Part shown: in pieces, positions 13,655-63,511 of the stretch
Position numbering within the stretch: the first letter of the stretch is position 1
Layout: each line of letters starts with the position of its first letter
Source of the DNA: Balanoglossus misakiensis
Lineage: Eukaryota > Animalia > Hemichordata
Length of the DNA stretch: 64,000 nt
NCBI GenBank assembly: GCA_040954595.2
Contig: CM082594.2
Coordinates: 1,506,247-1,570,246 of the forward strand
Reading direction: 5' to 3'
Position numbers and translations under genes: made by a program
The notes under the pieces: generated by a model
Database searches by the model: none
The model's input: only the letters and a program-made list of their open reading frames with translations
What the model was told of the DNA's origin: nothing

Positions 13655-14521
13655 ATGGCGGCCACGTTGATGACTTGGGATGGGAGTGATGGTACGGAGA
13701 TTGAGAGCCATATTTGTCAGGTGGAGGCATACTTTGTTGCCAAAGATGTTACAGATGAACGGAAGAAAGTAGCCAGCCTCCATTTGTCTTTGAAGGGTGA
13801 GCCTAAGAACTTTTTCACGCAACTGCAAGCCAGCCAGACAAATACATTTGAAAATGCGTCAAAAGCCCTAAAAGATCGGTTCAAGTCGATGAAAACAACG
13901 ACACAGTATCAGCAAGAACTGGCAGAACGCAAGCAAAAAGCTGGTGAGTCAGCACAAGAGTTGAAATTTGCCATCATAGACCTTGTTTCTCGTGCCTATC
14001 CCGAGGTCAAAGATGAAACAACGCGCCTAACACTGGCAGTTGCTCATTTCCGTACAGCATTACGTGGTGACATAAGCAGGAAACTGTCCTGGATAACAAC
14101 TGAAAAGGAGACTTTAGATGACTTAGTGAAACGAGCTGTACAGTTGGAGAGAGATTCCTCTTCAATCAGAATAGTTGAAAGTGGCGCTGCAAATAACACT
14201 GAGGATGCTGTTGTTACTGATGAACTGCTCAAAAAGTTAGACGAACTTGCAACCGGACAGGCAAAGCTGGCAGGTACAGTTGCTGCAATACAAACACAAC
14301 AACAACAGAACAGAAATGGTTATAATCAGAGGACACCACGAACCTGTTACACATGTGGTAAAACTGGCCATATTGCCCGGAATTGCCGTGCTGGTCAGCG
14401 AGGTCCGGTAGGAGCATTGAACAGGTTTCGGGGCCTGTGTCACAGATGTCAGCAGGTTGGCCATCGTGCTGCTGAATGTACAGCACCGGCACCAGTGCAA
14501 ACACATCCGGGAAACTTCTAA
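13655..14521 (+). CDS. gag: Gypsy Gag with two CCHC zinc knuckles
   Basis: 288-aa intact ORF; CYTCGKTGHIARNC and CHRCQQVGHRAAEC; QKAGES capsid motif. Confidence 0.92.
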   Translation: MAATLMTWDGSDGTEIESHICQVEAYFVAKDVTDERKKVASLHLSLKGEPKNFFTQLQASQTNTFENASKALKDRFKSMKTTTQYQQELAERKQKAGESAQELKFAIIDLVSRAYPEVKDETTRLTLAVAHFRTALRGDISRKLSWITTEKETLDDLVKRAVQLERDSSSIRIVESGAANNTEDAVVTDELLKKLDELATGQAKLAGTVAAIQTQQQQNRNGYNQRTPRTCYTCGKTGHIARNCRAGQRGPVGALNRFRGLCHRCQQVGHRAAECTAPAPVQTHPGNF

Positions 14522-17487
14522 GGGCTGGATGTGGTGGTCAGTCTCCTTCAGCAAGAAACCAGCTGACCGAACCTGTTGTGTCTGTTGCATCACTGGCGGG
14601 ACCACTACCGAATGGTATTGAGATTGAAGGATTTATTGGAGGAAAGAAATGTACGTGGTTGATAGACACTGGTGCCCAGATAAGTGTTGTTGTTGATACA
14701 TTGATTGAAGGAGCCCAAGGAACTCTTTTACCCCCACTTTATAACCCCCAAGGAGCGAATGGGAGCAGTCTTGGAACTGTATGTGATATTGTGACAGACT
14801 GCCACGTCGGTAAACATAAAGTCAGCCAGCACCGATTTACCGTAGTCAAACATTCAACATACCCAGCCATCATTGGCATGGATATTTTCCCTTCATTGCC
14901 AATCCATTTGTCAATTGGGACTGATGTTTACTACGATTCAAGTTCACTGTCACATGGCGAGAAATCACAGAGACTGGGCAGATCAAGGCATAATGAATGT
15001 AAAACGGACATGCGTCCACAACAGCCAACAATCTGTCGCATCCAAGCCGAAGAGCCAATCACTGTTTTGCCGCGGCATATGTGTGTGATTGAAGGCACAG
15101 TGGAGTATAACTTGAGTCCAGGGACAGTTGGTATTGTTGAATCAGCAGGTTCCGAAGGAAGTGAACGTATGGGCATTGGTTGTGGACGAGTGTTAGATGT
15201 AATACGTACCGGAAGCAAAGTTCTAATGCACATGACCAACCCATCCAACACTACTTGTGAAATTGCTGCAGGATCCACTATTGGTACATTTTCCACAAAC
15301 ATTTGCGATACACCAGCAGTTCAGGCTGTGACTTCAAAGACTACAAAAGCACAGAGAGCAGCAAAAGTGGATAAAATGGCACGTTCTTTTGCTAGCGAAG
15401 CTGACATTACAGGGAGTGAAAAACACCGACTGTATAAACTGATTCAATCAAATAGTGATGTGTTTTCAGTCGAAGGAGAACTGGGGTTGACTGATAAGAT
15501 AGAACATGAAATTCCTACAGGCCAGGCAGCTCCTACTGCTCAACCGCCACGACGTGTGCCCTTCAACAAACTGCATGAGGTGGAGAACTTCATACAGGAT
15601 GGTCTGAAGGCAAATGTGATCAGACCGAGCCATAGCCCATGGTCGAGCTCGCCCTTTGGTACTTGTGAAGAAGCAGAATGGCTCAACACGCTTCTGTGTT
15701 GATTTTCGACAGTTAAATGAAGTAACTGTTGGCGATTCATTTCCGATTCCACGAATTGATGACAGTCTAGCAGCACTTGGCGGGGCAAAGATATTCACCA
15801 CACTTGATTTAGCGAAGGGGTATTGGCAGTTACCTGGGAAGGAATCGGACCGCCACAAAACAGCATTCGCCTGTCACAGAGGCTTGTTTGAGTTCAACAC
15901 CATGCCCTTTGGGCTCAAGGGAGCCCCTGCAACTTTTCAGAGACTTATGACATCAGTTTTTAGCGAACTGAACTGGGAGATAGTGTTAATCTACCTTGAT
16001 GATGTCATTGTATTTTCGAGCAGTTTTGATGAGCACCTGGAGCACCTGCGAATAGTGTTTGGAAAGCTTCGTGCAGCTTGCTTGAAATTGAATGTGGAGA
16101 AGTGTGTTTTTGCTCGGAAGCAGGTGAAGTACCTAGGCTATATTGTTGGCGAAGAGGGCATACAACCGGACCCAGACAAAGTATCTGCGATTTCAAATTA
16201 CCCAAGACCACAGTCTGTTGCCGAGTTGCGTCGCTTCTTAGGTATGGCGTCGTATTATCGACGTTTCATCAACACATTTGCAGACATAGCTCATCCCCTA
16301 CATGAACTCACCCAGAAAAATGTAGGTTATAACTGGACCAATGCTTGTCAGAATGCATTTGATCAACTGAGAGAAAAGCTGATGTCATACCCTGTGTTGG
16401 TATATCCATGTTTCACAGAAGACTTTGTCGTTGAGACTGACGCCAGTGATATCGGTTTGGGTGCACTCCTTTGCCAAGGTGGCCATGTCATAGAATATGC
16501 GTCTAGAGCGTTGAACAAGGCAGAAAAGAACTACTCAGCAACAGAGAAAGAATGCCTTGGTGTTGTATGGGCCCTCGAGAAATTTGGCATGTACTTGAAA
16601 GGGAGACCTTTTACTGTGATAACGGATCACAAACCCCTGACGTACCTACGGCAACTGAAGCAACCTAAAGGAAAGCTAGCACGTTGGCGGGTAACACTAG
16701 ACAACTACGACTTCACAATTTCACACAGGCCAGGGAAGTTGATGACTGTGGCTGATGCATTGTCAAGAGCACCACATGTTCATGCAGTTACTTTGGCTGG
16801 CATTTGGACGATAGACGAACTAGTCAGACTACAGCAAAATGATCAACATGTTGGCATAATGCGTCGTTGGGTAAAGGATGGCACAAAACCCAGAAACATT
16901 CCAAACCATGTCAACAGTTTCCTTGTCAAGGATGGGAAAATGTTGGACTTCCGTGACGATTTGTTGGTTCTCAAGACAAAGAAGGGGGACATGCCAGTAG
17001 AACAAGTTGTTATTCCACAGACAGAAGTAGAGCGTGTACTCACAGCACTTCATGACGAACTTGGACACTTTGGACCAGCTAAAACAAAATCAGCCGTCGG
17101 TTCAAGGTATTTCTGGTTTCACTGGAAAAGAGATGTCAATTTGTGGTGTCGCTCATGTCAGTCATGCTTACAGCGCAAAACTCCAACTATACCTGACCGC
17201 CCACCTGAAGGTGATTTACCAATTCCTGATCGACCCCTTCAGTCGTGGCACATGGATTTTGCAGGACCTTTACCTAAGACACCACGTGGAAACAGATACA
17301 TCTTTTCGCTAACAGACCCAATCAGTAAATGGGTAGAAGCATTCGCAGTGCCTGATGAGACAGCCAAAACAACAGCGGCCGTAATATATGATGAGATTGT
17401 TTGTCGATATGGAATACCTGAAGGGTTACATTCGGACCAAGGGAAAAACTTTGAAGCTTGTGTCTTGAAGGAGTTGTGTCAACAACA
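14509..17487 (+). pseudogene. pol: Gypsy Pol (protease, RT, RNase H, partial integrase) in the -1 frame
   Basis: LIDTGAQIS, MPFGL...YLDD, ETDAS...TDHKPL, HHCC, WHMDF...HSDQG. Frameshift at about 15645-15657; truncated before the integrase Glu. Confidence 0.93.
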
Positions 17488-27800: not shown

Positions 27801-28789
27801 GTTACCAAAAAGGGGGGACAGGGGGCACACTTTGTTCTACGGAGCAGAGAGTGCCATCGAAGTGTAGTCAATAGTTTTCATTTTTGCTTAGAATGTGTCT
27901 TGAAAAGTGTTGGATTAATCATGAATAAAAAACGGAAAACGTGAAAAATACAACAAATCCGTATACAAAACCATTGCGAATCTGGTGACCGGAAGTGCCG
28001 TGTTCGATCGCCGGGTTTTATATCATGTGTATGAAACTATGCGTGAGCTCAGCTCAGCTCCTCCCAGTCATGGTGGACGTTGTTCATGTGCATCACTGTT
28101 ATATTTGCTATGATTTTTTTTGGATGAAAACAGTTTGTCCTATGTATACCTTTCATGGCGAAATTTGCGACATCGCCCAAACGCCATTTTACGTCGGTAA
28201 CGCACGTCCCCAGGACGAGTGACACTTTTCGATCGATAATATCTCGAATGTTCGACCGACTTTTGAAAATTGAAAAGCCAGACATTAGGTTTCTCTGTCA
28301 TCTAAAACGCATACTCTGATTTGGTAGCGATTGTCTTCGTAATAGTTGCCAAATGGCGGTGGGCTGAAAATTCGTTTCATACCCTGTATATATGTGTACT
28401 CACGTACACAGATCAGTTGCGGGCGCGCACGCATGCGTAGACATCGCCTTTACTGCTCAAGACGAGATCGTATTCTTCCCTATCAAATGACGTCAGACGC
28501 GCTCAGGCGGCAGTTACGTGCGCATTCAAATTTCCAGATGACGGGCAACTTCAGCAACGTGGACTTACGTGGTGCAGACAAAGACTGTGCAGATGAAATG
28601 CAACGAGGCTGATGAGATACCATACCTGATACATGTTACGTGTTTGGCGGTTCTAAAGTAAAAACATACTCGGAAAAACTATTACTGGATGCCGAAATAT
28701 TGCTTGCCCGTCATCTGGAAATGACTGCGCCATGTAGTCCGGCCGCCAAATCCACTTTTTTTGCCGAACCTTGTTTTGGCGTCTAAAGT

Positions 28790-29485
28790 TTTTTTTAAAG
28801 TGGATTCTGCTTGCATAGATCACCAGAGTGAAAGAAATGGTTACTGGAGCTCCGTCAGTGTTGAGCAATTTGATATAATTAGCATAAAAAAATGGCCGCC
28901 AAATGATTTCAAATTATCAATATATATGCCGGCTGCCAAGTCCGCTGTTTGTGACGAACCTTGTATAAGTGTCATCAGAGTTTTTAAAGCGGATTCTGCT
29001 TGCATAGATCACCAGAGTGAAAGAAATGGTTACTGGAGCTCCGTCAGTGTTGAGCAATTTGATATAATTAGCATAAAAAAATGGCCGCCAAATGATTTCA
29101 AATTATCAATATATATGCCGGCTGCCCAGTCCGCTGTTTGTGACGAACCTTGTATAAGTGTCATCAGAGTTTTTAAAGCGGATTCTGCTTGCATAGATCA
29201 CCAGAGTGAAAGAAATGGTTACTGGAGCTCCGTCAGTGTTGAGCAATTTGATATAATTAGCATAAAAAAATGGCCGCCAAATGATTTCAAATTATCAATA
29301 TATATGCCGGCTGCCAAGTCCGCTTTTTGTGACGAACCTTGTATTAGTGTCATCAGAGTTTTTAAAGCGGGTTCTGCTTGCATAGATCACAAGAGTGAAA
29401 GAAATGGTTACAGGAGCTCCGTCAGTGTTGAGCAATTTGAGATAATTAGCATAAAAAATGGCCGCCAAATGATTTCAATTATCAA
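28790..29485. repeat. 189-bp tandem repeat (about 3.7 units) in the Academ-like left arm
   Basis: The motif GG(A/G)TTCTGCTTGCATAGATC recurs at 28802, 28991, 29180 and 29369. Confidence 0.92.
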
Positions 29486-30784
29486 TGTAAGAGATATAGA
29501 AATCACCTTTATAGTGCGAAAACAGGTTAGTTGTCATAATTGAGTATATTTAAATACTAATTTGCATAAGTTAACGCTCCATGACGTATATACAAGTATT
29601 GTAAACCCTAAACATGAGTTACATACACGTTTTAACCAGATGAATGTTAATCTTTGCCGCAAAGGAATATGGCCGTCACTGTAGTAAAATGCAAAATACA
29701 ATGACTACATTGCATTTCTCACTTTAGAACTTCATAAACAAAGCATGATCTCATCCAGTAGAACACATGGAAGTAAATGTACTCCACTGAGACATTAGAT
29801 TTTTTATTTTTCATGGCACAAAACTTGCGGAAATGTTTCACTATACTGATATTCCTTTCATTTTTGGCCATTTTATCATAAATTCATAAATAAGTGTTTT
29901 CTTGATATACTATCAGGCAATATCATTTATTACACCTAATTAGAAGTACAGTGTAGATCAGAGATTATTTAAAGCTTAACTGTTTTTTATAAAGTTGAAC
30001 TGTATAAACGCAGATTATAACGTATTCTCTAAACTACAATAAACTACATTGAAATGTACATTAAAATGTACTAGACATTGTTCTGATCATATTTGTGTGT
30101 TTCCAAATGAGTGTATGCAATCCTGAAACACCCGTATACATATCCTTTATCTGTATCTCGGATAAAGATACACCTATTAAAAATGTTCGAGCAGAATGTC
30201 TCATTAGTCAACATGAGTTTTTTTCCGGGATTTTACGATTTGTTTACAAGGGATGGACAAAATAAACATTGGCCAAAGTTTAGACAAGGATATAATGAAT
30301 AAAGTTAGCAACATTCTTATGATTCAGGACACACCTACAGCCTCCTATTCCTATATAAACACCATGGGAAGGAAACTGTCCCATTACAACAGAGACTAAC
30401 ATTACTGATGAAACAGGCTTTCTTTGGTGGCAGTCGTAGGCATGAGCATATTGTCATTAAACACAACTCAGGCTATATTTTTCAACAATGATGCCAAATG
30501 TAAATACACCGATGTTAAAATAATAAGAATGCTGAACTTCCTGTTACCTTTCTATACATCCATATGGAGCCAAGTTTATGTAATCTCTACGAAATATGAT
30601 GTAAAACTATTGCTTGTAAATGTTCCAGTAACACCTTAGATAAGTCGTCGATTTCATAATTGTGAACTATCCTACTATATGTGACCTACGGGTAGTCATA
30701 ACCAGCTATAACCCTATAACCACTGAAATTAAATACAAACACTGGTCCCCAGATCGCATTTGTGATTCGCCTCGAAATAATGTA

Positions 30785-42200: not shown

Positions 42201-45200
42201 CGCTGAACTGAATCCCGTCCTCCGACTTGCTTTATTTTCTGGGATGGAGTTACCCAATGTCATCATATCTTCCAAAAGTGTGATGAGAGTTGACTTTAAG
42301 AGTGATGATGCAGTTACAATGAGAGGTTTTCATGCACATTACTGGGCAGGTAGGTAACGCATTCAAATTGATCAAGATGTTGTTTGAATGAAGAGGCAAT
42401 CAAGGATTCATGATACAAGAGAACAATGTTTTATAGGGACAAAGTCTCTCTCTCTCTACCCTTTTTCCAGGAATTATGATGATACAATACAGCATTTATG
42501 TTATTCTACATGTGGATATATAGTGAATGAACATTCAACCACACACAACTTCCATCCCACTTGTAGACATAAGAGTGAAAAAACTCGCCAAAATGAAAAA
42601 TCGGTCTCTACCGTTTATTCATTTTGGCAAGATTTTTACTCTCATATCCTACAAACGGGATGGAAGTTGTGCGTGGTTGAATGTTCATTCACTATATATC
42701 CACATGTAGAATAACATAAACAGTGTCTTGTATCAAACATAGTTAATGGAAAAAGGGCAGCGAGAGAGAGAAACTTTGTCCCTTTAAATCACTTAAAATC
42801 CTTCCCAAAGAATTTCAACCCAGTGGGAATTGTAAGGATCACAAATATATCTTCCTTTGCCATTCTTTCTGAAGGTTTATAAGCTAATCTGATACTGGGT
42901 CATTATGGAACTTTTTAAAGGGACAAAGTCTCTCTCTCGCTGCATTTTTTTCCATTAATTATATTTGATACAAGACACTGTTTGTTATTCTACATGTGGA
43001 TATATAGTGAATGAACGTTCAACCACACACAACTTCCATCCCTCTTATAGACAGGAGAGTGAAAAAACTCGCCAAAATGAATAATCGTTCTTTACCATTT
43101 ATTCATTTTGGGCGAGTTTTTACTCTCATATCATACAAGTGGGATGGAAGTTTTGTGTGGTTGATCATTGATTAACTATATATCCACATTTACATTAAAG
43201 CCTCAGTATTTCTCGTAGGGGCAAAATTTTGTTTGAAACGGCATCTATAATTTCTAAAAGTAGATGATAATTGATACTGAATCGAACAGTCATCATCCCC
43301 AGCTCTGCTAATAAACTCATACAATTTACAATATAACGAGTGAAGAATGACTTTCTGTCCGGACAGAAAGTCAGGCTCTGTTGACACACGTGACTACTGC
43401 GCATGCGCACTCAAATGTGAATCTATGCGGAAGAGGTTTGGTCGCCCCAAATCAAGCGACTCAGCGAAGAAATGCGCACTAATTCGGCGAAATTTTGGGA
43501 AGATAACTTTATGGGAGAAATCAGTCGATGGAACCAGATCAAATCCGAAAATGGTCTGACCATCAAATGTCAAAGTGGCACGTTTGCTGATCGACATGTA
43601 CAACATTTCCGTTGTAAACAAACCCGCGCATCATTTCAAGTGTTACGGGCAATATTTACAGCTTGCACGTAGCCCAAACCTTTCTTCTATCTTCATTATG
43701 TAGTATTCCATGATGAATGTACGGGAAAAACGGGCATTTTTCGATGATGAAAAATGGATACACACGAGAAATACTGGGGCTTTAACATAACCAGTGTCTT
43801 GTATCAAACATAATTAATGGAAAAGGGGCAGCTGGAGAGAGACCCTTCAACAGAAAAAATAACAAAATGTGAAAAAAGTTAAATGAGTTTAATTTGCTAA
43901 CTACATGTATAACGACAGAAATGTTTGACCTAAGGAAGTCATAAAATACAGTTAACAGTCATTTCTTCTATCGCTTACGACTTTTTATCCAGAAGGCAAT
44001 TATTATGTGATTTGATCCCCTAGCACGAAATAAAAGGCAGCCAGGATTACACCAAACCTGTGGATTGAATTAATTATTTCTTGTTTGGTATTTTTTCTTC
44101 AAAGGTTGCCAGGGAATTGAAATTCTGCGTAGTTTTGGTACGATTCAGTCACCAGGCTATGATGTTAGCACTTACCCTGATGATGTTATGTGTAGCTGGG
44201 TAATCAAGGAACCAACTGGAAGACCATTAACTCTTATCTTTGATGACAACTTTGGATTAGAGAGGAACACAGATGTTGATTACATCATTGTAAGTATCAG
44301 ATATGATCAGGAGTCAGCCATGTTAAAGGGACAAAGTCTCTCTCCCGCTGCCCTTTTTCCATTAATTATGTTGATACAAGACACCGTTTGTGTTATTCTA
44401 CATGTGGATATGTAGTGAATGAACGTTCAACCACATACAACTTCCATCCCACTTGTAGACACAAGAGTGAAAAACTCGCCAAAATGAATAATCGGTTATT
44501 ACTGTTTATTCATTTTGGGCGAGTTTTTACTCTCATACCCTACAAATGGGATGGAAGTTGTTTGTGGTCGAAGGTTGATTACAAATGTATCTATATATCC
44601 ACAGGTAGAATAACATAAACAGTGTCTTGTATCAAACATAATTAATGGAAAAAGGGCAGAGAGAGAGAGACTTTGTCCCTTTAATGCTGACAAAATTTTG
44701 TCATATTATTTTGCAGTGATTTTAGTTTGACAATTTTGGCAGACATTACTTCAAACTATACAACTTTGGAACACAATTTTGAAATTCAATTAAACACATA
44801 TATACTGTAAAACGGTAAACTTTTGCAACATGAAATTTTCGCGTTCTTGTATTTCACTGCATCATTATCCCTGAAAAACATTTTTATGCTACTTTTTATT
44901 TTATACGTTTTGATGGCTCTCGCATAGTTCACGAAAATTTATCATTTGCGAAAATTTCCCGTTTTACAGTATTTGAGTAGCTGTTACAGCAGGAAATGCA
45001 ACAAGGATTGAATACTGTAAAACGGGACATTTTCGTGAATGATAATTTTTCGCAAACTACGTGAGAGCCAAAAAACATGAAAATAAAGAGTCGTATAAAA
45101 TGTTTTTTTCGGAGATAACTATGCAGTAAAATATGACAATGTGAAAATTAATTGTTGTGTAACAGTAGCCACCTTTGATATCGCGAAAATTTCCTGTTGT

Positions 45201-50500: not shown

Positions 50501-53092
50501 CGTGACTGCACAATTCCCCCACCCCTCACCCCCACCCCCTGAGTTTTAATATCCTCATATAAGTGCCCTTTATCGCTACAGGAAATTTTTGCGACCGGAA
50601 ATTTTCGCGATATAAAAAGCAGAAACTGTTACGAGACGATTAAGTTTCATGTTCTCGTATTTCACTGCATTGTCATCACTGAAAAACATTTTTAAGCGAA
50701 TTTTTATTTTCACTACGTCTTTTTTGGCTCTCTAGCGTAAAAATTTACTGTTTGCGAAAATTTCCCGTTGGTCTAATACCCAGCTAAACTTGTTGGTCCG
50801 AATTTTCCCCTTGGACCTCTGGGATTTTGATCATATCTTGATGAATAGCATTTCAGATATCAATGAATGTAGTACATTGGTGGCACCATGTGGAATCAAT
50901 CAAGTCTGTGAAAATAGAGATGGTGACTATCAGTGTGCATGTCTGGTGGGATTTGAACCGGATGTGAATGGAACAGCATGCAAAGGTGAGACATAACCAG
51001 TCACATACAACGTAACTTCAAGTCACTATTCACATTTAACACATTCCAAACTATCTGGATAAATTTTCAGAATTTCCTTGTAATTTTAAATTTTCTTCAA
51101 CAGACATAAGTGTTGCCATCACCTTGACACAACTTTATCATAATTTATCTTTTAAGTTCATTCACAACCTAAAAACAGTCATTTCCTGGAAATGTTCATC
51201 TGTTTTCTCTAAAATATCAGCTGAACTGTTTTGTAGAAGGAAATGTTCAACTAATTATTTCACAGATTTTTTTTCTCCCAAAAATTGCTGAATTTTTCAC
51301 TTCCAAATCCACGTGAAGGATCCCTAGTCTGGAACATAGAGGAAACTGGTGATATTCTGGTGGAGTTCAATAGCACCATTACATTCTATTGTTTGGAGGG
51401 TTTTCAACTGAATGGACAGTCCACTCTGTTGTGTACAGTGGAAGGCCAGTATGATGCGGACTTTCCAACTTGCACACGTAAGTCAATATTTGTTTTTTTT
51501 AATCAGAAAACCTTGATATTATTATACATCTGACATCGAGAACAATAGAATTTGGCGTATGGAAGTTGTGTGTGGTTGAACGTTGATTCACTACATATCC
51601 ACATGTAGAATAACACAAACGGTGTCTTGTATTAAATATAATTAATGGAAAAAGGGCAGCGAGAGAGAGACTTTGTCCCTTAAAAAGTGATTACAGATTT
51701 ATCCCAGGCTCTTCCTTCAACTCAACTCTACGTGTATTTTCTACAGCTGCTGTCTGCAGTGAACCAGAGAGTATTGATCATGGCAGCTACGAGGTCAATG
51801 ATCCCAACTACAACTATCAGAGTGAAGTGACCTATAGTTGTGACATTGGATACAACTTATATGGTAGCCATGTCAGAGTGTGTACCTACAGCAGTCAAGA
51901 TGGTGATTACCGATGGAATTCCTCTCCTCCTGTCTGTCAACGTAAGTAACAGGAATGAATAATGCTATACCTTATATTCCTTAGAATTCTTTTGCATTCT
52001 ATAGATTGCAATACGCATTAAAGTTATGTAACACTCTTTGATCAACAGTTGAAACTACAGCATGAGCTTTCGGGAACATGTAGTCCCCTTCTTCAGATGC
52101 ACTCGTGGAAGATTCCAAGCTCATGCTGTAATTTCAACTGTTGATCAAAGAGTGCTACATAACTTTAATGCATATTGTACCGAAGATCACCACGGCAAAA
52201 CTCTGAATTGTCATTCTATAGATTCTATCATTTCTATAGAATTCAATAGAAACAGGCTTCAATACTTCAAAGAAAATATGTGCGCTATATAAGAACTCAC
52301 TATTATTATTTCTAGGTGTTGACTGTGGTTTGTTGACTGCGATTGAAGATGACTCATGGGAATAGTGATGGCACTTGGTATGATAGTGTTGCTACACTCC
52401 AGTGTAACATGGCATATGAAGCACTTGGTAACACCAGGAGATATTGCACTGAAGATGGAACATGGAATGGCACCAGACCAAGATGTGTTGCTCAGGGTAA
52501 CGTAGAAAAGAATATTTCTTTCAGAGAAGCAATCACTTCTGTTTGATAATAGTTATACTCTGATGAAATTCATGACATTCACACACAATGTGTTGTTTGA
52601 ATACAGTGTAAAATGGGGAATTTTTGGGCCAGACATTTTCGCAATATCAAAAAAGGCGACTGTTACACTGCGACTACTACTTTTTCACTTTCTTGTATTT
52701 CACTGCATCGTTATTTCCGAAAAACATTTTAAGCAACTTCGAAAACTACATACAAATATATAGATGTCCATAGAAATTATTTAAACTTATATAGAAATTC
52801 AAAAGGCTAATGAATTCTGTAGAATGATGTATATAGAATGTTTTTGTAAGGAATGACTTCTGTCTGAGTTGATGATTTAATATTGATAAGATACTTTGCT
52901 TCTTGACCTCAGGAGAATGTCAAGATCCTGGTACACCAGTCAACGGTCAGAGACATGGCAATGATTTCGACATTGGTTCTATAGTGTCATTCAGTTGTGA
53001 CTATGGATTCACACCAAGCCATCCAAACCCTTTGATGTGTGAAGGAGATGTTGTGACTGTGTTGCCAACAACACCTTCTACTACAACTACTG
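47530..53092 (+). CDS. Host gene: CCP/sushi exons (47530-47715, 48725-48904, 49358-49540, 49862-50044), EGF-Ca (50857-50985), CCP exons (about 51299-51477, 51747-51941, 52316-52496) and N-half of a CCP (52913-53092)
   Basis: Phase-1 exons with C-P...Y/F-C-GY/F...C...W...P-C pattern; DINECSTLVAPCGINQVCENRDGDYQCACLVGF. Confidence 0.9.
47736..48011. mobile_element. AT-TSD MITE, uninterrupted copy
   Basis: Homologous to 28474-28731 plus 32870-32908; AT flanks. Confidence 0.78.
52022..52164. mobile_element. Palindromic TTAA-flanked MITE
   Basis: AGTTATGTAACACTCTTTGATCAACAGTTGAAA... inverted at the other end; TTAA on both sides. Confidence 0.7.
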
Positions 53093-53301
53093 GTGTGTAT
53101 ATACTGTTGTTATAAACATCGTGGTGTGCTGAAACAGTACCGTGATAACTTCTATGTTCATGTAGTGTGATATATGGAGAAATGGTTCAGAATGCCCGCT
53201 TCCAAAACAACAGAGAGGCTTTAAAAGCTATTTGAATGTTGAAGTGAAACTTGACAAACAGAATTCAATCAGCATAACCTCTATTGCCTCCATTGTCATA
53301 G

Positions 53302-54358
53302 AAACGGAAACGGTCACAGACATGTCAACTGCAGAGCTTGGGACGACAGAAATGGATGGAACTGATAGAGCGGCAACAGAAGAGGAAGAAGTGACCACAT
53401 TGCGGATGAAAATCTCCACAGCAGCTGCAGACACAGATGTTATGAGAACCACCAAGAGAGCACAGACAGATGGCATGGTAACCACAACGGCAAAAGTACA
53501 CACAGATGATGTGGCAACCACGGCGACAAAAGTACACACAGATGATTTGGTAACCACGACGGCAAGAGTACACACTGATGCTCAAACAAGAGATGCAACA
53601 GGTACGTCAAGTACAAACATCCACTGAATATCTGAAAACAATATGACAAGTTTACTTTACAGATGTCCTCTCAGTGGAAGTGAAAGTATCTCATTTCTTT
53701 TAATTGTGGATTTTTGGTTTCTCATTTGTTAGCATAATGAAAAGCTGTATAATACAGGGGTCACCATGCTTGAATTTAGTCATGGCCTTGTGTAGTTGAA
53801 AAACAAACAAACAGCTGAGTCAGCATTTCTTCACCCAAAAACATTTAACGATATTTATCTCTGAATAGACTGTGGTGACCATACAATTTTATTTGACCAA
53901 TGAATTTATTTTCATTTAACTGAGCTAAATTGTCATGAAAATGACAGTAGTGAGTTTATATCAATCTAATCCCATGCGAAGAGACAAATGTGCACGAATT
54001 TGCGCAGTTTACAAGTTTACGTTCTGTGTGTACATCAGTAATAGGTTGTGTAGCAAAATGTAGCAATAAAATCCAAATTCCATTCCAGTCAAGTTATTTA
54101 TCATATAGTTATATTAAATAATTGATATTAAATAATCATTAGTGAGATCTATGGAATCTCACATATTTTAATGCAGAATGACTTGATTTCCATATGCAGG
54201 TTATGAGGCGCCATCAACGCAGGCAATCACTGTGACTGAAAGAAAACCAACGACAGATTCAGATAAAGAATTTACAACATCTGAAACTACTAGTGCACCA
54301 CTTTCAACTAAAATATCAACAACAAAACCAGTGACACCTTCTCATGATGTATCAACAG
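53302..54358 (+). CDS. Host gene: Thr-rich mucin-like exons (53302-53601, 54200-54358)
   Basis: Phase-1 exons with T/E/D-rich low-complexity translation and internal 39-bp repeats (TTTAKVHTDD). Confidence 0.75.
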
Positions 54359-55054: not shown

Positions 55055-56581
55055 TCAGTAGAGATTGTGGAACCTTTGAGACTTTTGTAAACGCAACTTG
55101 TGAGAAGTACATTGAGACACCAACTGATGGTACCTGTTCATTTGGAACATTCTACACAAGTATGGTTGCTGGTATGGCCAATTTTCAAGATTCACATGTA
55201 AGTATAAAGTTAGTTCTTGAAAGTCTATGTACCGGTAAATGTTTTGCTCCAGTGTCAATACTGACCAGATTGTCTCCAATTTCTCATTGTGATTTGTAAC
55301 ATTGTTATGAATGATTTTATTTTGTCTTGTTTTATGTGTTGCACTGTATTTTTTTAAATTTCTCACCCAAGATTGATTTAATCACTAAATGTACTTGGAA
55401 AAAACTGCATACTGTAGTATTTCCAGTGTTGTCTAAAGGAGTTTTTTGGTTTGTGTAATTGCAGGTTTGCGGGCAATGCCTGAACGTGATTGGTTCAAAT
55501 GATGTATCTGTAGTTGTCCGGGTAACAGACATGTGCATGTACCCGTACTGCATGAGTGATGAAGATGGTCTGGTTCTAAGTCAGGATGCTTACAACATCT
55601 TGTCAGATGGTGAAAGTCCTTCATCTCTTCTTGTATCCTACTCAGTTGTTGCCTGTCCTGAGGATGTCTCTATCAAGTTCAAGGTTTGTGAAACAACACA
55701 ATTATTAACTAATTTATATACCCTTGTCTTTAATTGTCACATCTTGGCAAACTTGTTTGAAACCTCCCTAGCCATTTTTTTAAGTATTTGTAATATTGAA
55801 GTTTAAATTGTCAAGAGTATTCATCTGTTTCTTTACTGGAAGTTTAGATCTCCTGGAAATCAAACCAGTCTCAACTGATTTGGACAAGGGAAGATCCAGT
55901 GGGGACTAGGTCATTGACAATGATTTGTTGCAAATACTGTAAAACGGGAAATTTTCACGCCAGGAAATTTTCGCAATATCAAAAGAGGCAACTGTTACGC
56001 GAGGATTAATTTTGGCGTTCTTGTATTTCACTAACTGCATTGTTAAATCTGAAAAACATTTCACACGACATTTATTTTCACGTCTCTTTTAGATCTTGCG
56101 TATTTTGCGAAAATTTATGCTCGCGAAAATAACCCATTTTACAGTAAGTCTTGCTCTAAATTTCAAAGTATTAGGACCAACCAGGGACTGTGTTGTTCAT
56201 CTTTTTAGTGTACTGCATATTGATTGATTGATTTGTTTATTTAGTTTGCAGAGAGCATTTCTGCATCATTCAGCTTATTAATATTGGATCATCGTTACCC
56301 TGTCACCACTGTGGAAGTCCACACAACTGGTCCCTGGATTACTCTAGACAGACTCAGTGATAACTTATTTGAACCACCCATTGGTTCTGGTGATATACAA
56401 GCCCCTCTCAATGTCAAGGTCTATTCGGTGTCTGGTAAAATTAACTACAGGGTTACAGACTTTGAGTTTGATGAGATTATTGACACCTCCAAGCAATTTC
56501 GACATTGTGAGGATGATGAGCTTGAAGTTTCTACACTTCCAGACTTTGGAATAGTTACAACAATTGAGAGTACGCTTGAAG
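55055..56581 (+). CDS. Host gene: expansin-like (EXLX-type DPBB + CBM63-like) module in three exons (55055-55197, 55465-55683, 56245-56581)
   Basis: GTCSFG...VAG...VCGQCLNVIGSNDVSVVVRVTDMC.YPYC...GLVLSQDAYNILS...VSYSVVACP...IKFK|...ILDHRYPVTTVEV...WITLDRLSDNLF...PLNVKVYSVSG...KQF. This follows the microbial expansin motif order. Open frame with compatible phases 1/0/0/1. Confidence 0.8.
55935..56146. mobile_element. TA-flanked CTGTAAAA MITE family (others at about 38731-38925, 44803-44971, 45013-45222, 49040-49247, 50575-50770, 52605-52740, 56730-56905)
   Basis: TACTGTAAAACGGGAAATTTTCGC...TTTTACAGTA ends; shared interior. Confidence 0.7.
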
Positions 56582-57127: not shown

Positions 57128-58351
57128 ATGAAACAACGCTGGAATATTTAACTAGTCCCTACACCGAAGGCACAGAAAAAAGCATCTCAACTGAGGATAT
57201 GCCATAACTTCGCCCAGAATGACAACTGTGTTGGACACAGACAATATACCGGCTGTGACAACTGGAAAAAGCAAGTCAACCACAACAGTTACTATGGTTA
57301 CAGTAACCATGCCTGTTGTCGTGACAACAGTAGAGGCAAGTTCTGAAAAGCCTGATCAGCAGTCAAGCACAGAAGGTGAGGGTACATACAAGACAACATC
57401 TGCTCCGATCTCAAAAACAGAAATGATGTCAACAGCAGAATCTGTGGATATTACTCCTGCAGACCAGACTTCAGAGTATGACGATGCAAGTGATGTGATG
57501 CCAACAGAGTCATGGACCACACCAGAGAAATTGTTGACAACAAACAAAATGGACGCCACCACACCAGAGACACTTTTGACAACAAATAAAATGGACGGCA
57601 CCACAGAATATTGGCAAACGGTAGAAGGCACCACAGAATGGCAAACACAAATGATAACTGATGAAACTGCCACTTCCCAAAGAAGAACAACAAGAAAACA
57701 TACAACTGAGGCACCGACAGATCTGTTAACATCAAAAGGTGAATGTATACGAATTTCTACACTTTTCAGCATTATGAGCTCCAAAGTAAGGATGGATCTT
57801 GTTTACTTAGTTGACACGACTCTAGCTCCTGGATGACACCATTATTTTTAGGGGGTGAGGGGTGGAAGAAAGGAGAAAACATATTCACTCCTCACTTTTT
57901 TTTCAAAGAAATGTAGGTTTACTTCCTATTATGATAAAGTAAACTATGAATAATAAAACATTGAAAATTTGGCTTTATTGATAGAAACTTCATGTACGGG
58001 TACAGTGAAAATTTCAATTGAAAAAAAAAAATTCATAATACCTCTAATGTAAACAGTTAAACAGTTATACATTGTTAGTTACCATCATCATCGTTGTTTG
58101 AATCAGACTCTATGTCACAAATGAGGCAATAACAATGCTCAGTGCAATTGATCTGTATACGGTTGGTCAAATAACTCTTCCACTCTTATCATATAGACAC
58201 CCATGTCCAGTGTGTAATATAAAGTATTCATTCAATTTCATTTATACAGTATATCATGATGTCAGTACTAAACCAACTACGAAACCAGCAACAACTCTGA
58301 AAGCCACAACAGGTGGTCTTACGACCCTACCAACTCCAACTCAACTACCAG
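57128..58351 (+). CDS. Host gene: Thr-rich mucin-like exons (57128-57738, 58250-58351)
   Basis: T/E/S-rich translation, GT-AG bounded; frameshift near 57200. Confidence 0.75.
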
Positions 58352-58775: not shown

Positions 58776-61700
58776 ACCGTGACGTTCCTGACTACTGTGC
58801 ACAGCTTAGTGTGTCATATAATGGTAGTGGGCAGATTACAGACCAGCAATCCTGTGGCAACTACTATGGTACAGAAATAACAACACAACTTGTTAATGGT
58901 TTAACTCAACTCCTGTCTCAAGATCCATCAGGAGCATGTGTTCCTGTTGCTGGTCTGGTTACAATCAATATCGCATTATCCACCACCAGTCTCACCTCGC
59001 TATCGGATAATTCGGTGGGTACTCTAACTGTCTCTTTCAGTCTTGCAGAAAATCTTGTAGACTCTTTCTGGAGTCTAGAATATTACACTCAACAAATTGT
59101 TCACTTCATAGCATTTTATCTCACATGCTCTTCAGATTGCATATCCAAAGAAAAAATGCATATTGGGAGAATATTTTCATGCAAATGTGACAACCATGCG
59201 ATGTTTAATTTTGTCGATACAATCGATCGTAAACTGCTCAGCTGAAACAGTGAGCAGTCATCTTTCTTTTTTGTTTACGTGCGTTGGAGTGGGGATGTCT
59301 TGAAACCATCCGCATAACAGCTAGTACATACCTGTACACGGTGAGTTGGGGCGCCTTGAAACTTAAGGGGTATTTAACACGCGTTCCGTACGTACCGTTC
59401 CGTATGGCTTTTTAGTACACGCTAAATTCTATTGTTCTTGGTGCCAGATGCATAATAATAAAGCATATTAAACATAACATCTTTTAAAACAAATGCTTAT
59501 GACTGTATTTTCATTACCTGCAGCTTTTAATGGATGTGGGGCTGAACTTACTGATTGAACCCATAGACCCATTGAGCCCTGGATACGACAATGCAGAATT
59601 GTCGGGATGTGGTCTTCAACTAATCTTTTATCTGACCAACCATCCAAGTGTATTTCCAGTTTTGGTTGCCATTGACAGTTCAGACAATTGTCCAGAACTA
59701 TCATCTTCTGCAAACCCAATTCAAGAAGATGATGCAACATTCTGTTGTCCTGAAGGATATGAGCTCTTCCAGAATGTCAGATGCAGTATGTATAAAATCA
59801 TTATTTTTATTCACACTAAAGTGGCGCTTATATCTCTTCTTTTCTTTTAAGGATGTACGCGCAGAACATAAACCGGAAAACTGCACGCACCCGTCTTTTT
59901 CCCATAGGATTACATTGATAATTGCTAGAAAACAAACTTCTTCTATTGTCATTGTCACAAAATTTTCTACATAGCTCAGTCCAGTAAATATAAATTCATT
60001 GGTCACTTAAAATATAAGGGTCACCTTGCTCTATTTTGAGATAAATTGCATTAAAAAAAATTTGCCCATAGACAAACCATTGGTGAAAAATGCTGAATCA
60101 GCAGTTTTCTTCTATTATCGACTAAATTCGTGGCTCTGTAATGTGTATTTCATAAACAGGCACGGTCATCAGGTAAATGCATGCTATGAGCGGTGTGTTA
60201 CAAGCATGAATTAAGTATTACTTACAGAAAAAAAATTCTTCTTATTTCAACAGCAGCCGCAGTGGAAGTTGTGAGGAAAAGAAGGGATGCATCTGAACAG
60301 TCATCATTTCTCACTAATGCTAAATGGAATGGCACTGCACCTGTTTGTATTGGTATGTTCATTAGGTCAAAATAAAAAAATATGTGCTGTTCCAATTACC
60401 CGACCTACCCTAATTATAACCCGCTGACCCTAAACATTTTAGAGCTTCCTAAACCGGAAGTATAAAAAACAATGTCAAATATACAAAATTTATGAAAATT
60501 GCAAGAATCACGTAAGAATTATGACGTTATTCTTATACACTACGGCGGCCAGAGTAATAAAAAAAATGCAACATAAAAAAACCTACCTACCTACCCTATT
60601 TTTGAAAACCATGTAATCAGAACAGCACAATTTAGCAATTTATCCGCCAGATTGAGTTCTTGAATGAAATCACCAATGTTGGAATTGGATTTTAATGTTT
60701 GTTTGTGTTTCATTCTAATTTGATTCTGATTGTGTTTCATTCTGATTTGATTTGATTTGATTTCATGCATTGTCTGCCTGCTTTCATTTGTGGAAATCAC
60801 AAAGCTTATAAATGGTCCATCATTGGAGTGGTTGTCAACATCACTGGGAAAAAGGACGATGTTCAACTGGTTTAGCAATTGGGGTTGTCATGGAGCCACC
60901 TACAGAACAGTTCTTCTCCCAGCTGATTTCAAGATTACTATGTCGCTTTAATGGCTGGCAAGTATTGTGGTTACAAACTTGGCAGATTACAGTCTCATAT
61001 CTTATGAAATATATTTTGGCTTGCAGATACCATGCCACTAGACTGTCCAGACACGTACGTAATTCTTGTTGATGAAGTGGAACACAATGTGTCATATCCA
61101 GCAGTCTCTGTTGTAGACAACCACGGAATCAGTGACGTCATATATGAACCACCAAATGGAACTGCAGTTGAAACCAGGAACTACATCACAGTGACTGTTA
61201 CTGCAACCGATTACAGTGGCAACCAGGCTCAGTGTCAATTTGATGTTTCTGTTCAACGTAAGTGTTCAGCTAAACTAGCCCACTAGTCGCTTGGTGAATT
61301 TTGAATCTCAATACTTTTGTGTGTTTGTGGTGATTTTTTGTCTTTATAATACTTTTTGTGTGCATGCTGCTTTGAGCGTTTTTCTGGTACTGAGTTGAGT
61401 TTCGAAAATAATGCAAAAAGTGGTGGCAGAGACTTTAAACATTTAGAAGTTAATATGGCATTGTTTTGAGACATTAGACATTTCACCTTTTAACATCTCA
61501 TTTAGTTATTCAGCTGATACATGTCCAGAGTGGTCACTACCTACACCAGAAGGTGGACAGAAGACTTGCACCCGTGTCATTGGAGGACCACTGGGTTCAG
61601 GATTCTCATGTGCATTGTCCTGTCAAGCTGGTTATGATTTCATTCAAGAAATTGATTCACCTGGAGGAATGTACACCTGCATAATTGGTGGAACATGGCT

Positions 61701-63511
61701 ACCCCATAATTACGTACCTGATTGTGTTGGTGTGTATGGGCTTCTACTGATCTATTTTTGCGTAATTGAAATTCAACTGATATCATATCAATATTCATTA
61801 GGCCCCCAAAATAATATGTGAATGCTGATGCAGATAATAAACTTGAAGAACCAAAATAACCAACTAATTCAGTGTTACTGTTGGTTCAAATTTTCTCTGT
61901 ATATTGCTGATATGTGAGGGAATTTGTGTTTTCCAGTTTGCTATGTGTGCCCTTATATAAACTGATCATTTTATAATCAGTCAATACCTACATTTTTATA
62001 ATCAGTCAATACCTACATTTTTATAATCCGTCAATACCTACATTACCGCATGGAAGATGGCACTAGTCCAGATTTGAGTGGATTAGCAAAAATGGGATTT
62101 TTTCACCAGCTTAGTAAAGCGAAAACTGGATTGACGATTGACAATTCAACTAGTCGGCCTGAAGTTAAATTATCTTCCATATTGATCTTTCCACAGAGAA
62201 GGAAGTTCCAGATTATTGCCTGACTGTGGGAGGTGTATACAACTCTGTGATAACCATTCCAAGTGATACCAACCAATGTATCTCATATTACGAGTCGAGT
62301 CTGCTTGGAATTGTGCAGTCTGTTGAACCACTGTTGTCGGTCCTGTGTAACTCGATTGAAGACAGTGTTGAAGTGACTATTCAACAATGGCCATAGTAGA
62401 CTCCAATCAGGTATTATTATCTGTCCTGCTGGAAAATTTTACAGTTTTATGCTGAAGAAGAAGGTTGATGTAATCCTTTATTTGATTTCTGTCGTTACAT
62501 TATTGTACAATGTGTTACCCTAAGGTTGGGTTCTCCAAGGTGTGTCATTTTTAAGAAGCATTATCTTGTTATTGGAGGGACAAAGTCTCTCGCTCGCTGC
62601 CGTTTTCCCATTAATTATGTTTGATACAAGACACAGTTTATGTTATTCTACATGTGGATATATAGTGAATCATCATTTGACCACACACAACTTCCATCTT
62701 GTTTGTAGGATATGAGAGTAAAAACTCGCCCAAAATGAATGAATGGTATTCATTTTTCGCGTGTTTTTTCACTGTCGCGTCTACAAGAGGATGGAAGTTG
62801 TGTGTGGTCAAACATTGATTCTCTATATATCCACATGTAGAATAACATAAACAGTGTCTTGTAATTGTATCAAACATAATCCCTTTAAATGCTCCATAAT
62901 AGCTTTATCTTTTTGCTACGTTTTCAGTGTGTTTGTTTTGTGTATCTACTGCAGTTTCTTGTTCAAATACCTGAAGAATCATAAAATGTTGAGCATTTGG
63001 CTTAATATCAACACAACATATATGTGAATGGTCAGCATTGTTATTGTGCAAAATTTAATTTCAGACTAGAATTCATTTGTCAACAATAACAATGGCTGTT
63101 ACACGCATACATGATAAGTACTGGGTATAGTAACATGCTGTTTGGAGTAGAACAAGAAATAGCGTTTGATACACGGAAGAAAATACTGAAAAAAAGCCAA
63201 AAGTTACAGCTATTTTGTCCTTTTAACCCATTAAACCAAACTTTCTATTTGGTGTTTTTCATACCGGTAGGTGAATGCAACAGTTGCCATGAAATTACTT
63301 GCAAAGACAGACAACGCAACAAGTTTAGATCTCCAAACCTGCGGTGATAGTATAATGAGTGCAATTACAACTCAGTTCAGTCAATTCAACAGTCTCATCA
63401 AAATCGAGGCAAATGGTGCTTGTCCAGAATTGAATCTGTCAGGAGCCCCAACTAATGAGTTCTCAGGATGTTGCTGTCCATCTGGAAAGATTTTCAGTGG
63501 CTGTTATTGTT
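58776..63511 (+). CDS. Host gene: Cys module A (58776-about 59014, 59524-59785), RKRR + C-half of CCP (60254-60352), HYR (61027-61257), CCP-like (61514-61729), Cys module B (62197-62410, 63271-63511)
   Basis: VPDYC...CG...CPEL...CCP.G occurs twice; VRKRRD...KWNGTAPVC; HYR motif P.CP...P...DN.G...VTVTATDYSGNQAQCQFDVSV. Confidence 0.8.

Follow-up and report, generated by a model that had tools for sequence, protein, structure and literature searches.

An expansin-fold module without the key expansin residues in a mucin-like cassette of an acorn-worm receptor gene

A 64,000-nucleotide stretch of the genome of the acorn worm Balanoglossus misakiensis (GCA_040954595.2, contig CM082594.2, positions 1,506,247 to 1,570,246 of the forward strand; hereafter the window) contains, within a large gene for an uninflatable-like receptor, three exons that encode a complete two-domain expansin-fold module. 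It was observed directly that the module belongs to the fold family of microbial EXLX expansins, that it has lost the equivalents of EXLX1 Asp82 and of the EXLX1 aromatic triad, that it lies in a Thr-rich cassette within a Sushi domain and that it is present in the genes of three enteropneust lineages. Its identity and architecture as described here can be held with high confidence. Because the module has the EXLX fold but fails the residue tests for a working expansin, the right label is expansin-fold rather than expansin. The reading favored here, to which we give slightly better than an even chance, is that the protein carries a likely non-loosening binding module on an arm predicted to be opened by a furin-type protease. 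All coordinates below are positions in the window, and all features lie on its + strand.

Module exon 1 (55055-55197, phase 1 to 0) encodes the N-terminal part of the DPBB domain D1, exon 2 (55465-55683, phase 0 to 0) encodes the remainder of D1 plus a linker, and exon 3 (56245-56581, phase 0 to 1) encodes a CBM63-like domain D2 followed by the onset of the next Thr-rich stretch. The original prediction, made from the letters of the sequence, had described three phase-compatible exons with expansin-type motifs between Thr-rich stalks, and this description was confirmed. All of the quoted motifs are present, all three exons are bounded by AG/GT, the reading frame stays open from the preceding Thr-rich exon (54200-54358) through the joined exons, and the fraction of threonine plus serine (T+S) in the flanks is 0.30-0.42. 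Exon 1 is 62% identical to module 1 of the orthologue from Ptychodera flava, junction residues included, and the residues flanking the 54358/55055 joint are conserved in that species. As judged from sequence, splicing of the module into the receptor gene as a phase-1 to phase-1 exon block is supported. The two introns within the module are 267 and 561 bases long, both multiples of three, which is regarded as chance. Copies of the short dispersed repeats described below lie in the intron between exons 2 and 3.

When the exons were scanned singly against the NCBIfam model NF041144 (expansin_EXLX1), exon 2 matched positions 39-109 (E 3e-7, 29.9 bits) and exon 3 matched, in order after it, positions 119-193 (E 5.6e-6, 25.8 bits), and exon 1 gave no match in the Pfam or NF041144 scans. 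The cut-off of this model is 100 bits; it was passed by all six of the bacterial profile proteins checked, and the orthologues reached 131 bits over two modules and 222 bits over three, which is <100 bits per module. Two Pfam matches had been anticipated, of which the one to DPBB_1 was found below threshold for exon 2 (E 0.0023, with Barwin also sub-threshold) and the one to Expansin_C was absent for exon 3. Among PDB sequences, the sole match to exon 2 was EXLX1 7wvr (E 0.53), and the top three of the five matches to exon 3 were bacterial expansins (2bh0, E 0.009; 9ms4; 9ms5). Word-index searches with exons 2 and 3 among longer proteins, a weak method, gave no match.

The joined exons were also compared with a profile of bacterial EXLX-like proteins, for which a D2-motif search had yielded 120 loci and 77 usable open reading frames (ORFs); 36 of the latter, at <75% identity, were retained for alignments. 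The joined exons scored 73.7 bits over positions 20-207 of the 77-protein profile, compared with 5.9 bits for the best of 1000 shuffles (624 reported) and 3.7 bits or less for all other ORFs of the window. Exons 1 and 2 without exon 3, the part untouched by the D2-motif selection, scored 37.6 bits. Together with the ordered NF041144 matches, these scores bear out the earlier assignment of DPBB D1 followed by a CBM63-like D2 in the order of EXLX. A profile built solely from animal sequences matched 7wvr at an E value of 2.8e-15 and five further EXLX chains at E <3e-6.

A module of the P. flava orthologue, 62% identical to that of the window, was used as a structural stand-in. Its model, predicted from an alignment of 42 rows (36 of them bacterial), had a predicted local distance difference test score (pLDDT) of 85 and a predicted template modeling score of 0.80. 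The expected resemblance to solved EXLX structures was seen with this model: the top 12 Foldseek rows were all expansins (E 2e-13 to 2e-9; template modeling (TM) score about 0.75), and VIA-align gave Z values of 18.2-19.6 for five expansins, compared with 11.7 for the next fold relative and 9.2 for GH45. In the ESM Atlas, the nearest structures to homologues of the module were bacterial EXLX clusters (TM 0.82-0.88); fungal, plant, hemichordate and giant-virus clusters, all <0.9, are taken as leads only. With the microbial EXLX proteins (NF041144; Bacillus subtilis EXLX1/YoaJ 2bh0, Clavibacter 4jcw, Talaromyces 7wvr, Streptomyces 9ms5 and Xanthomonas 9ms4), the window module shares a colinear D1 and D2 of ~200 residues and an HRYP/NxF/QF core. 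It differs from them in being only 16-27% identical, in being split twice by introns and in lying inside a protein of >4500 residues, whereas theirs are small secreted proteins or GH5/CBM fusions.

The host gene occupies 4810-63511 and extends past the window, as determined by Pfam scans of each exon and by tblastn colinearity; an exon for its signal peptide was not found. Pfam matches to LDLa, CUB, Sushi, EGF_CA and HYR were obtained on the window exons, and the domain order is a lectin-like region, LDLa, three CUB domains, Sushi repeats with EGF, the cassette and HYR. Lectin_C was not matched on the single window exon scanned or in the Saccoglossus kowalevskii and P. flava orthologues; the region aligns with homologues that include the Lectin_C-bearing Trichuris protein P0030. 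A HMMER search with exon 3 returned four proteins, namely S. kowalevskii XP_077862127.1 (4825 residues) and XP_006812919.2, P. flava XP_070533744.1 and one bacterial repeat protein. The last of these, from Flavobacterium (P0004), had no match to the EXLX profile and was discarded. A further search with residues 2790-3480 of XP_077862127.1 gave 63 long proteins, including P. flava XP_070567428.1 (4527 residues).

The sequence from 4810 to 63510 is colinear with both XP_077862127.1 (LOC100378937) and XP_070567428.1, mostly at 60-76% identity to P. flava, which points to an enteropneust closer to Ptychodera. These orthologues, each named "uncharacterized protein", share with the window the cassette, its location within the split Sushi domain and the RKRR-type site. 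They are the only two module carriers among the 63 long homologues, with three copies in S. kowalevskii and two in P. flava (retained in all three isoforms) compared with one in the window. Both the placement of the module in an animal surface-protein gene and its conservation in orthologues, the latter proposed as a check of the original prediction, therefore hold. The module exons are each 55-62% identical to those of P. flava, and the CUB and Sushi exons are 60-76% identical; the Thr-rich stretches that flank the module scarcely align. Identity to the S. kowalevskii modules is 42-44%. The Ptychodera and Saccoglossus lineages are reported to have diverged >370 million years ago (PMC4729200), and such long-term conservation between scarcely aligning flanks argues for past constraint on the module.

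By their sequence, the P. flava and S. kowalevskii orthologues would be type I membrane proteins that share the layout of Uninflatable (Uif), for which a lectin-like region, LDLa, three CUB, about eight CCP, EGF and HYR domains are listed (PMC3340373). Drosophila Uif and the uif-like proteins of nematodes, molluscs and annelids have LDLa, three CUB domains, a CCP array with EGF, and HYR in the order shared by the host gene, and the orthologues also have a transmembrane segment, as in Uif-like proteins. Unlike Uif-type receptors, neither orthologue contains FA58C. This comparison is one of domain layout from the literature, as Drosophila Uif is not among the 63 homologues. Beyond the window, the cytoplasmic tails of both orthologues contain Tyr-Asn-Pro-Met-Tyr (NPxY-type) and end in Tyr-Phe, motifs that we take to be endocytosis/PTB and PDZ-type signals.

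In EXLX1, Asp82 is required for wall creep, Trp125 (W125), Trp126 (W126) and Tyr157 (Y157) are responsible for cellulose binding, and Thr14, Asp71 and Tyr73 contribute, according to the account in PMC5072189. The corresponding columns were compared among the six modules embedded in receptors, five free-standing hemichordate modules and the 36 bacterial rows. The original prediction had placed Val at the Asp82 position and had judged the D2 aromatic triad degenerate, and the alignments agree on both points. The Asp82 equivalent is Val (55573-55575), which also aligns with Asp78 of Clavibacter 4jcw, and this column holds Val or Ala in 6/6 embedded modules but Asp in 35/36 bacterial rows. Ala-Ser occupies the Trp125-Trp126 positions (56263-56268; register from 2bh0 alignments), and the Trp126 column is aromatic in none of the six embedded modules but is Trp or Tyr in 35/36 bacterial rows. 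The sole aromatic exception noted among the embedded modules is in P. flava module 2, where a Phe lies close to the Trp125 column. At the Tyr157 position, the window module has Asp (56359-56361; direct 2bh0 alignment), and all six embedded modules have Asp or Asn, compared with Tyr in 33/36 bacterial rows. The Thr of the first D1 strand (EXLX1 Thr12 or Thr14), present in 35/36 bacterial rows, is likewise replaced in the window module and is Glu in five of the six embedded modules. GH45 endoglucanases and type 2 lytic transglycosylases have a catalytic Asp equivalent to expansin Asp82 (PMC5072189), where the window module has Val.

Other residues were kept or newly fixed. The Asp71 equivalent (55528-55530) is Asp in all embedded modules (6/6) and in 32/36 bacterial rows. 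Three residues N-terminal of the Asp82 position is an Asp specific to the embedded modules (55564-55566), found in 6/6 of them; the same column is Gly in 34/36 bacterial rows and Gly or Asn in the five free-standing modules. The window module is acidic, with 29 Asp plus Glu compared with 12 Lys plus Arg, and seven Cys columns are retained in five of the six embedded modules. Because the Asp82, Trp126 and Tyr157 equivalents are absent from all six, wall loosening by the embedded modules is unlikely, and, with the cellulose-binding and loosening residues of EXLX1 gone, any binding would have to use another surface or another ligand.

The module lies in a cassette that interrupts a Sushi domain. 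An exon at 52913-53092 encodes the first three-quarters of this domain (Cys I-III; Pfam Sushi positions 1-46 of 56) and leads into the Thr-rich cassette. There follow a Thr/Ser-rich mucin-like exon (53319-53601; ORF 53166-53627, T+S 0.30, donor 53601), which has no strong in-phase acceptor and whose true acceptor is uncertain and may be further upstream, and the Thr/Ser-rich exon immediately 5' of the module (54200-54358, phase 1 to 1, T+S 0.42). Immediately 3' of the module is a Thr/Ser-rich exon that is frameshifted in the window (57128-57738), followed by a short Thr-rich exon (58250-58351). The cassette ends with a Cys-bracketed domain encoded by two exons (58776-59014 and 59524-59785), 58-66% identical to P. 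flava residues 2486-2652, for which Pfam gave no credible match and which may be SEA-like. A furin-type RKRR site (60274-60285) and then the final Sushi strand, with its Trp, Pro and Cys IV, are encoded by the exon at 60257-60352.

Joining of the two Sushi halves covered profile positions 1-56 and raised the score from 28.5 bits for the first part alone to 44.4 bits, a gain that was repeated in all four homologues tested. The insert within the split domain measures 1818 residues in S. kowalevskii, 1505 in P. flava, 1160 in Gigantopelta and 167 in Trichuris. In Gigantopelta aegis P0012 (residues 1147-2308), it is a Thr-rich mucin without an expansin and with RSKR at its end, and in Trichuris suis P0030 (residues 1308-1476), it is an F5_F8_type_C domain (E 1.2e-7, above cut-off). 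An RKRR-type site ends the long inserts of the window, S. kowalevskii, P. flava and Gigantopelta proteins. By eye, the same Sushi domain is uninterrupted in four mollusc or annelid-type homologues (P0029, P0032, P0038 and P0040). Sushi disulfides pair Cys I with III and II with IV, and RxKR is a furin site. Given this pairing and this site, the cassette would loop out of the stalk, and cleavage would give a free-ended arm held by the Cys II-IV bond; loop-out and arm are inferred from the sequence.

The window copy of the gene carries three lesions, all of which fall in phase-1 to phase-1 exons. At 50986-51299, the gene lacks ~75 orthologue residues (the second EGF and a linker) as well as the acceptor site for the Sushi exon that follows, and a repeat copy adjoins the remaining exon. 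The Sushi exon at 52316-52496 has a frameshift near 52360-52365, with two frames each matching part of the P. flava domain. In the exon at 57128-57738, a frameshift near 57194 leads to a stop at 57205-57207. Contigs of runs X1/X2, from one sample at a depth of 2.5, provided a second haplotype, and here one extra base after 57194 gave 203 open codons. These lesions may reflect either real damage to this allele or mistakes in the assembly.

In the second haplotype, the module exons have no indel and no stop, and independent DNA contigs connect exon 1 to exon 3 and to the following mucin exon. Similarity to the window stops six bases past the exon 1 donor and returns 13 bases before exon 2, the intron between having been replaced. 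Because similarity ends and resumes so near the two exons, their limits are supported. The X1/X2 contig concerned keeps module exons 1 and 2 but has intron 1 (55203-55452) replaced by 270 unrelated bases, and another contig matches the window intron; the former represents either an old divergent haplotype or a paralogue.

Expansin-like proteins are also encoded by free-standing enteropneust genes (S. kowalevskii APU50764.1 and XP_006812919.2; P. flava XP_070533744.1), one of which was already recognized in GenBank, where APU50764.1 is named "expansin-yoaj protein-like protein 170". These proteins are of a secreted type with two tandem modules, unlike the receptor-embedded module of the window, with which they share the seven-Cys pattern and 28-33% identity. 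Their second modules keep Trp plus Tyr or Phe; Asp82 is present in two of three and is replaced by Asn in the other. Against the bacterial profile, these second modules reach 166-208 bits, compared with 60-82 bits for embedded modules. Their first modules lack Asp82 and Tyr157. The second module, with most canonical residues kept, might be a working animal expansin.

The proposed check of phylogeny against bacterial EXLX was answered in part. A tree was built from 11 hemichordate and 36 motif-selected bacterial rows, and in it the hemichordate modules fell on one side of a branch (support 100/99), with no sister group resolved. Within this tree, the six embedded modules grouped together (100/98) and were placed with the free-standing first modules (99/98). 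The possibility that the embedded modules descend from the first of the two tandem free-standing modules was considered and was not confirmed, as discussed below. The seven-Cys pattern occurs in 6/36 bacterial rows, including all four from Myxococcota, and among solved structures the animal-only profile matched a fungal one best (Talaromyces 7wvr). The direct source of the embedded module was likely the animal's own expansin family, and a horizontal origin of that family is about evenly balanced against the alternative. An ESM Atlas search with residues 20-233 of the free-standing protein P0002 found an unnamed cluster of 53 giant-virus (Nucleocytoviricota) proteins (feature score 0.89), a lead only, and a scan of viral contigs with P0007 found no viral relative.

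Our proposal for the history and function of the module is as follows. In an ancestral enteropneust, a module of the free-standing family would have been copied, and this phase-1 to phase-1 exon block would have entered the mucin cassette and later been duplicated to give one to three copies, occupying the place taken by a discoidin domain in the nematode homologue. The two Sushi halves would fold together, leaving the cassette as a loop that projects from the receptor stalk, and a furin-type protease would then cut at RKRR and convert the loop to a free-ended, O-glycosylated arm, with the Cys II-Cys IV bond keeping the N-terminal half on the membrane-bound half. The acidic, disulfide-locked module would bind a ligand other than crystalline cellulose, perhaps a protein or a glycan of mucus or matrix. 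The contact would most likely be made via the D1 face, which carries the retained Asp71 equivalent and the invariant new Asp. On the available sequences, this ligand-binding-arm mechanism stands at about an even chance.

Several observations weigh against this proposal. An alignment confined to animal rows gave a model with a pLDDT of only 41, so that the better model leans on its bacterial rows, although the first four Foldseek rows of the poorer model were still EXLX chains (E 7e-4 to 2e-3). The nesting of the embedded modules among the free-standing first modules is not decisive: the alternative, in which the free-standing modules stay together, is not rejected (approximately unbiased test, p-AU 0.41), and only one shared derived column favors the nesting. 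The whole module block is absent from P0008, an earlier S. kowalevskii model of the receptor gene, and copy number varies from one to three among the three enteropneust genes. The window copy is itself damaged by two frameshifts and one missing exon, one of the three having been checked against other DNA. Finally, of the 14 listed differences between haplotypes in the module exons (nine more lie in the stretch), 11 change an amino acid and three are silent. This ratio is about what neutrality predicts (neutral ratio 3.0-3.5; P 0.002 under an omega of 0.2) and could reflect decay of the copy, relaxed constraint or diversifying selection.

Alternatively, the module may have no ligand. It could serve as a compact, disulfide-locked spacer that gives the mucin arm stiffness or protection, or it could be a vestige on which selection has relaxed, and the window copy may be decaying. 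All of the functional residues tested save the Asp71 equivalent are lost, the haplotypes differ in a near-neutral ratio, the window copy has its three lesions, copy number is variable and 61/63 long homologues lack the module. However, module exon identity to P. flava is near that of the CUB and Sushi exons, new surface residues are fixed across the embedded modules, the second haplotype shows no stop or indel in its module exons, and the amino acid changes are also compatible with diversifying selection on a recognition surface. We consider a spacer or vestige possible but tentative. That the Asp71 equivalent, the new Asp and the first-strand Glu form a new acidic site, making the module a re-tooled catalyst or a binder of peptidoglycan, chitin or algal glycans on food or surface microbes, is improbable, even though these acidic substitutions are fixed in 5-6 of the six embedded modules. 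The DPBB fold is common to GH45 enzymes and lytic transglycosylases, and EXLX1 binds peptidoglycan (PMC5072189); in addition, xylan cleavage is reported for a single-domain fungal relative (bioRxiv 2025.10.08.681111) and mucus feeding for acorn worms (PMC4729200).

A working expansin that loosens or grips the cellulose of plant or algal food would fit the complete two-domain fold in canonical order, and the residues kept in free-standing second modules suggest that acorn worms may have such proteins. It is nevertheless highly improbable for the embedded modules, in which, bar the one Phe of P. flava module 2, the residues needed for creep and cellulose binding by EXLX1 (PMC5072189) are replaced in 6/6. 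The least probable reading is microbial contamination, a chimeric assembly or a nested gene not spliced to the receptor. Exon joining is read from DNA and gene models, the older S. kowalevskii model lacks the block, and a 2019 survey left metazoan expansins unconfirmed as real genes rather than contamination (bioRxiv 637728). However, the introns are spliceosomal and contain the host's own repeats, independent contigs join exon 1, exon 3 and the next mucin exon, the GC content is similar to that of the remainder of the gene, and the module occupies the same position, with conserved junction residues, in the gene models of two other species. A nested gene is also opposed by the lack of a start codon or signal peptide of its own. 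Because the host is colinear with the module-bearing P. flava and S. kowalevskii proteins, contamination is very unlikely.

Additional features were seen in the introns of the host gene and upstream of it. A retrotransposon remnant at 14476-15699, with a gag-type aspartyl protease and the beginning of a pol-like frame, lies inside the 31-kb host intron at 5661-36718. Short dispersed repeats that occur in both orientations are found in introns between 38700 and 63000. They belong to two or more families, one of which has internal inverted arms (for example, 42480-42735 and 62625-62863) and resembles miniature inverted-repeat transposable elements. An ORF at 28725-29540 consists of three near-identical 66-residue repeats, and short frames at 1506-2093 resemble, by eye, a DNA-transposase remnant.

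Expansin-type domains have been described in other animals. In Exaiptasia, the pedal disc up-regulates an "Expansin-YoaJ" that carries a chitin-binding domain (PMC6626399), annotated expansin-like genes are listed for Oikopleura and bivalves, and nematodes have expansin-like effectors, with a reversed domain order (bioRxiv 637728). None of these is described within a large receptor, by which they are set apart from the window module. The survey text counts metazoan expansins as few, and the passages of PMC6006793 mention expansin for nematodes only. The word "expansin" is absent from the main text and two spreadsheets of PMC4729200. Likewise, no expansin module in a receptor was found among the listed titles and opening abstract lines of the literature on metazoan, bivalve and hemichordate expansins and on uninflatable domains.

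In three acorn-worm genomes, one and the same receptor gene carries an intron-split module at a shared position, which settles the question of a real gene for this lineage at the level of DNA and gene models. The extracellular ligands of the uninflatable-type receptor family are poorly known, and a testable ligand-binding slot is suggested by the shared Sushi loop, which holds a discoidin domain in a nematode, a mucin in a gastropod and both a mucin and an expansin-fold module in acorn worms. The loop could, as a bolder and rather unlikely extension, be an evolutionary swap slot for recognition modules, in which the furin-opened mucin arm of acorn worms, carrying a microbial expansin domesticated and remodeled about a new acidic site, would bind or cut microbial or algal wall glycans in feeding mucus and signal via the receptor. 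If this were true, the expansin fold would have been converted from a wall loosener to an animal sensing module. With canonical free-standing and residue-depleted embedded modules in one animal family, acorn worms offer a natural experiment on the expansin fold that is suited to side-by-side comparison of binding and creep.

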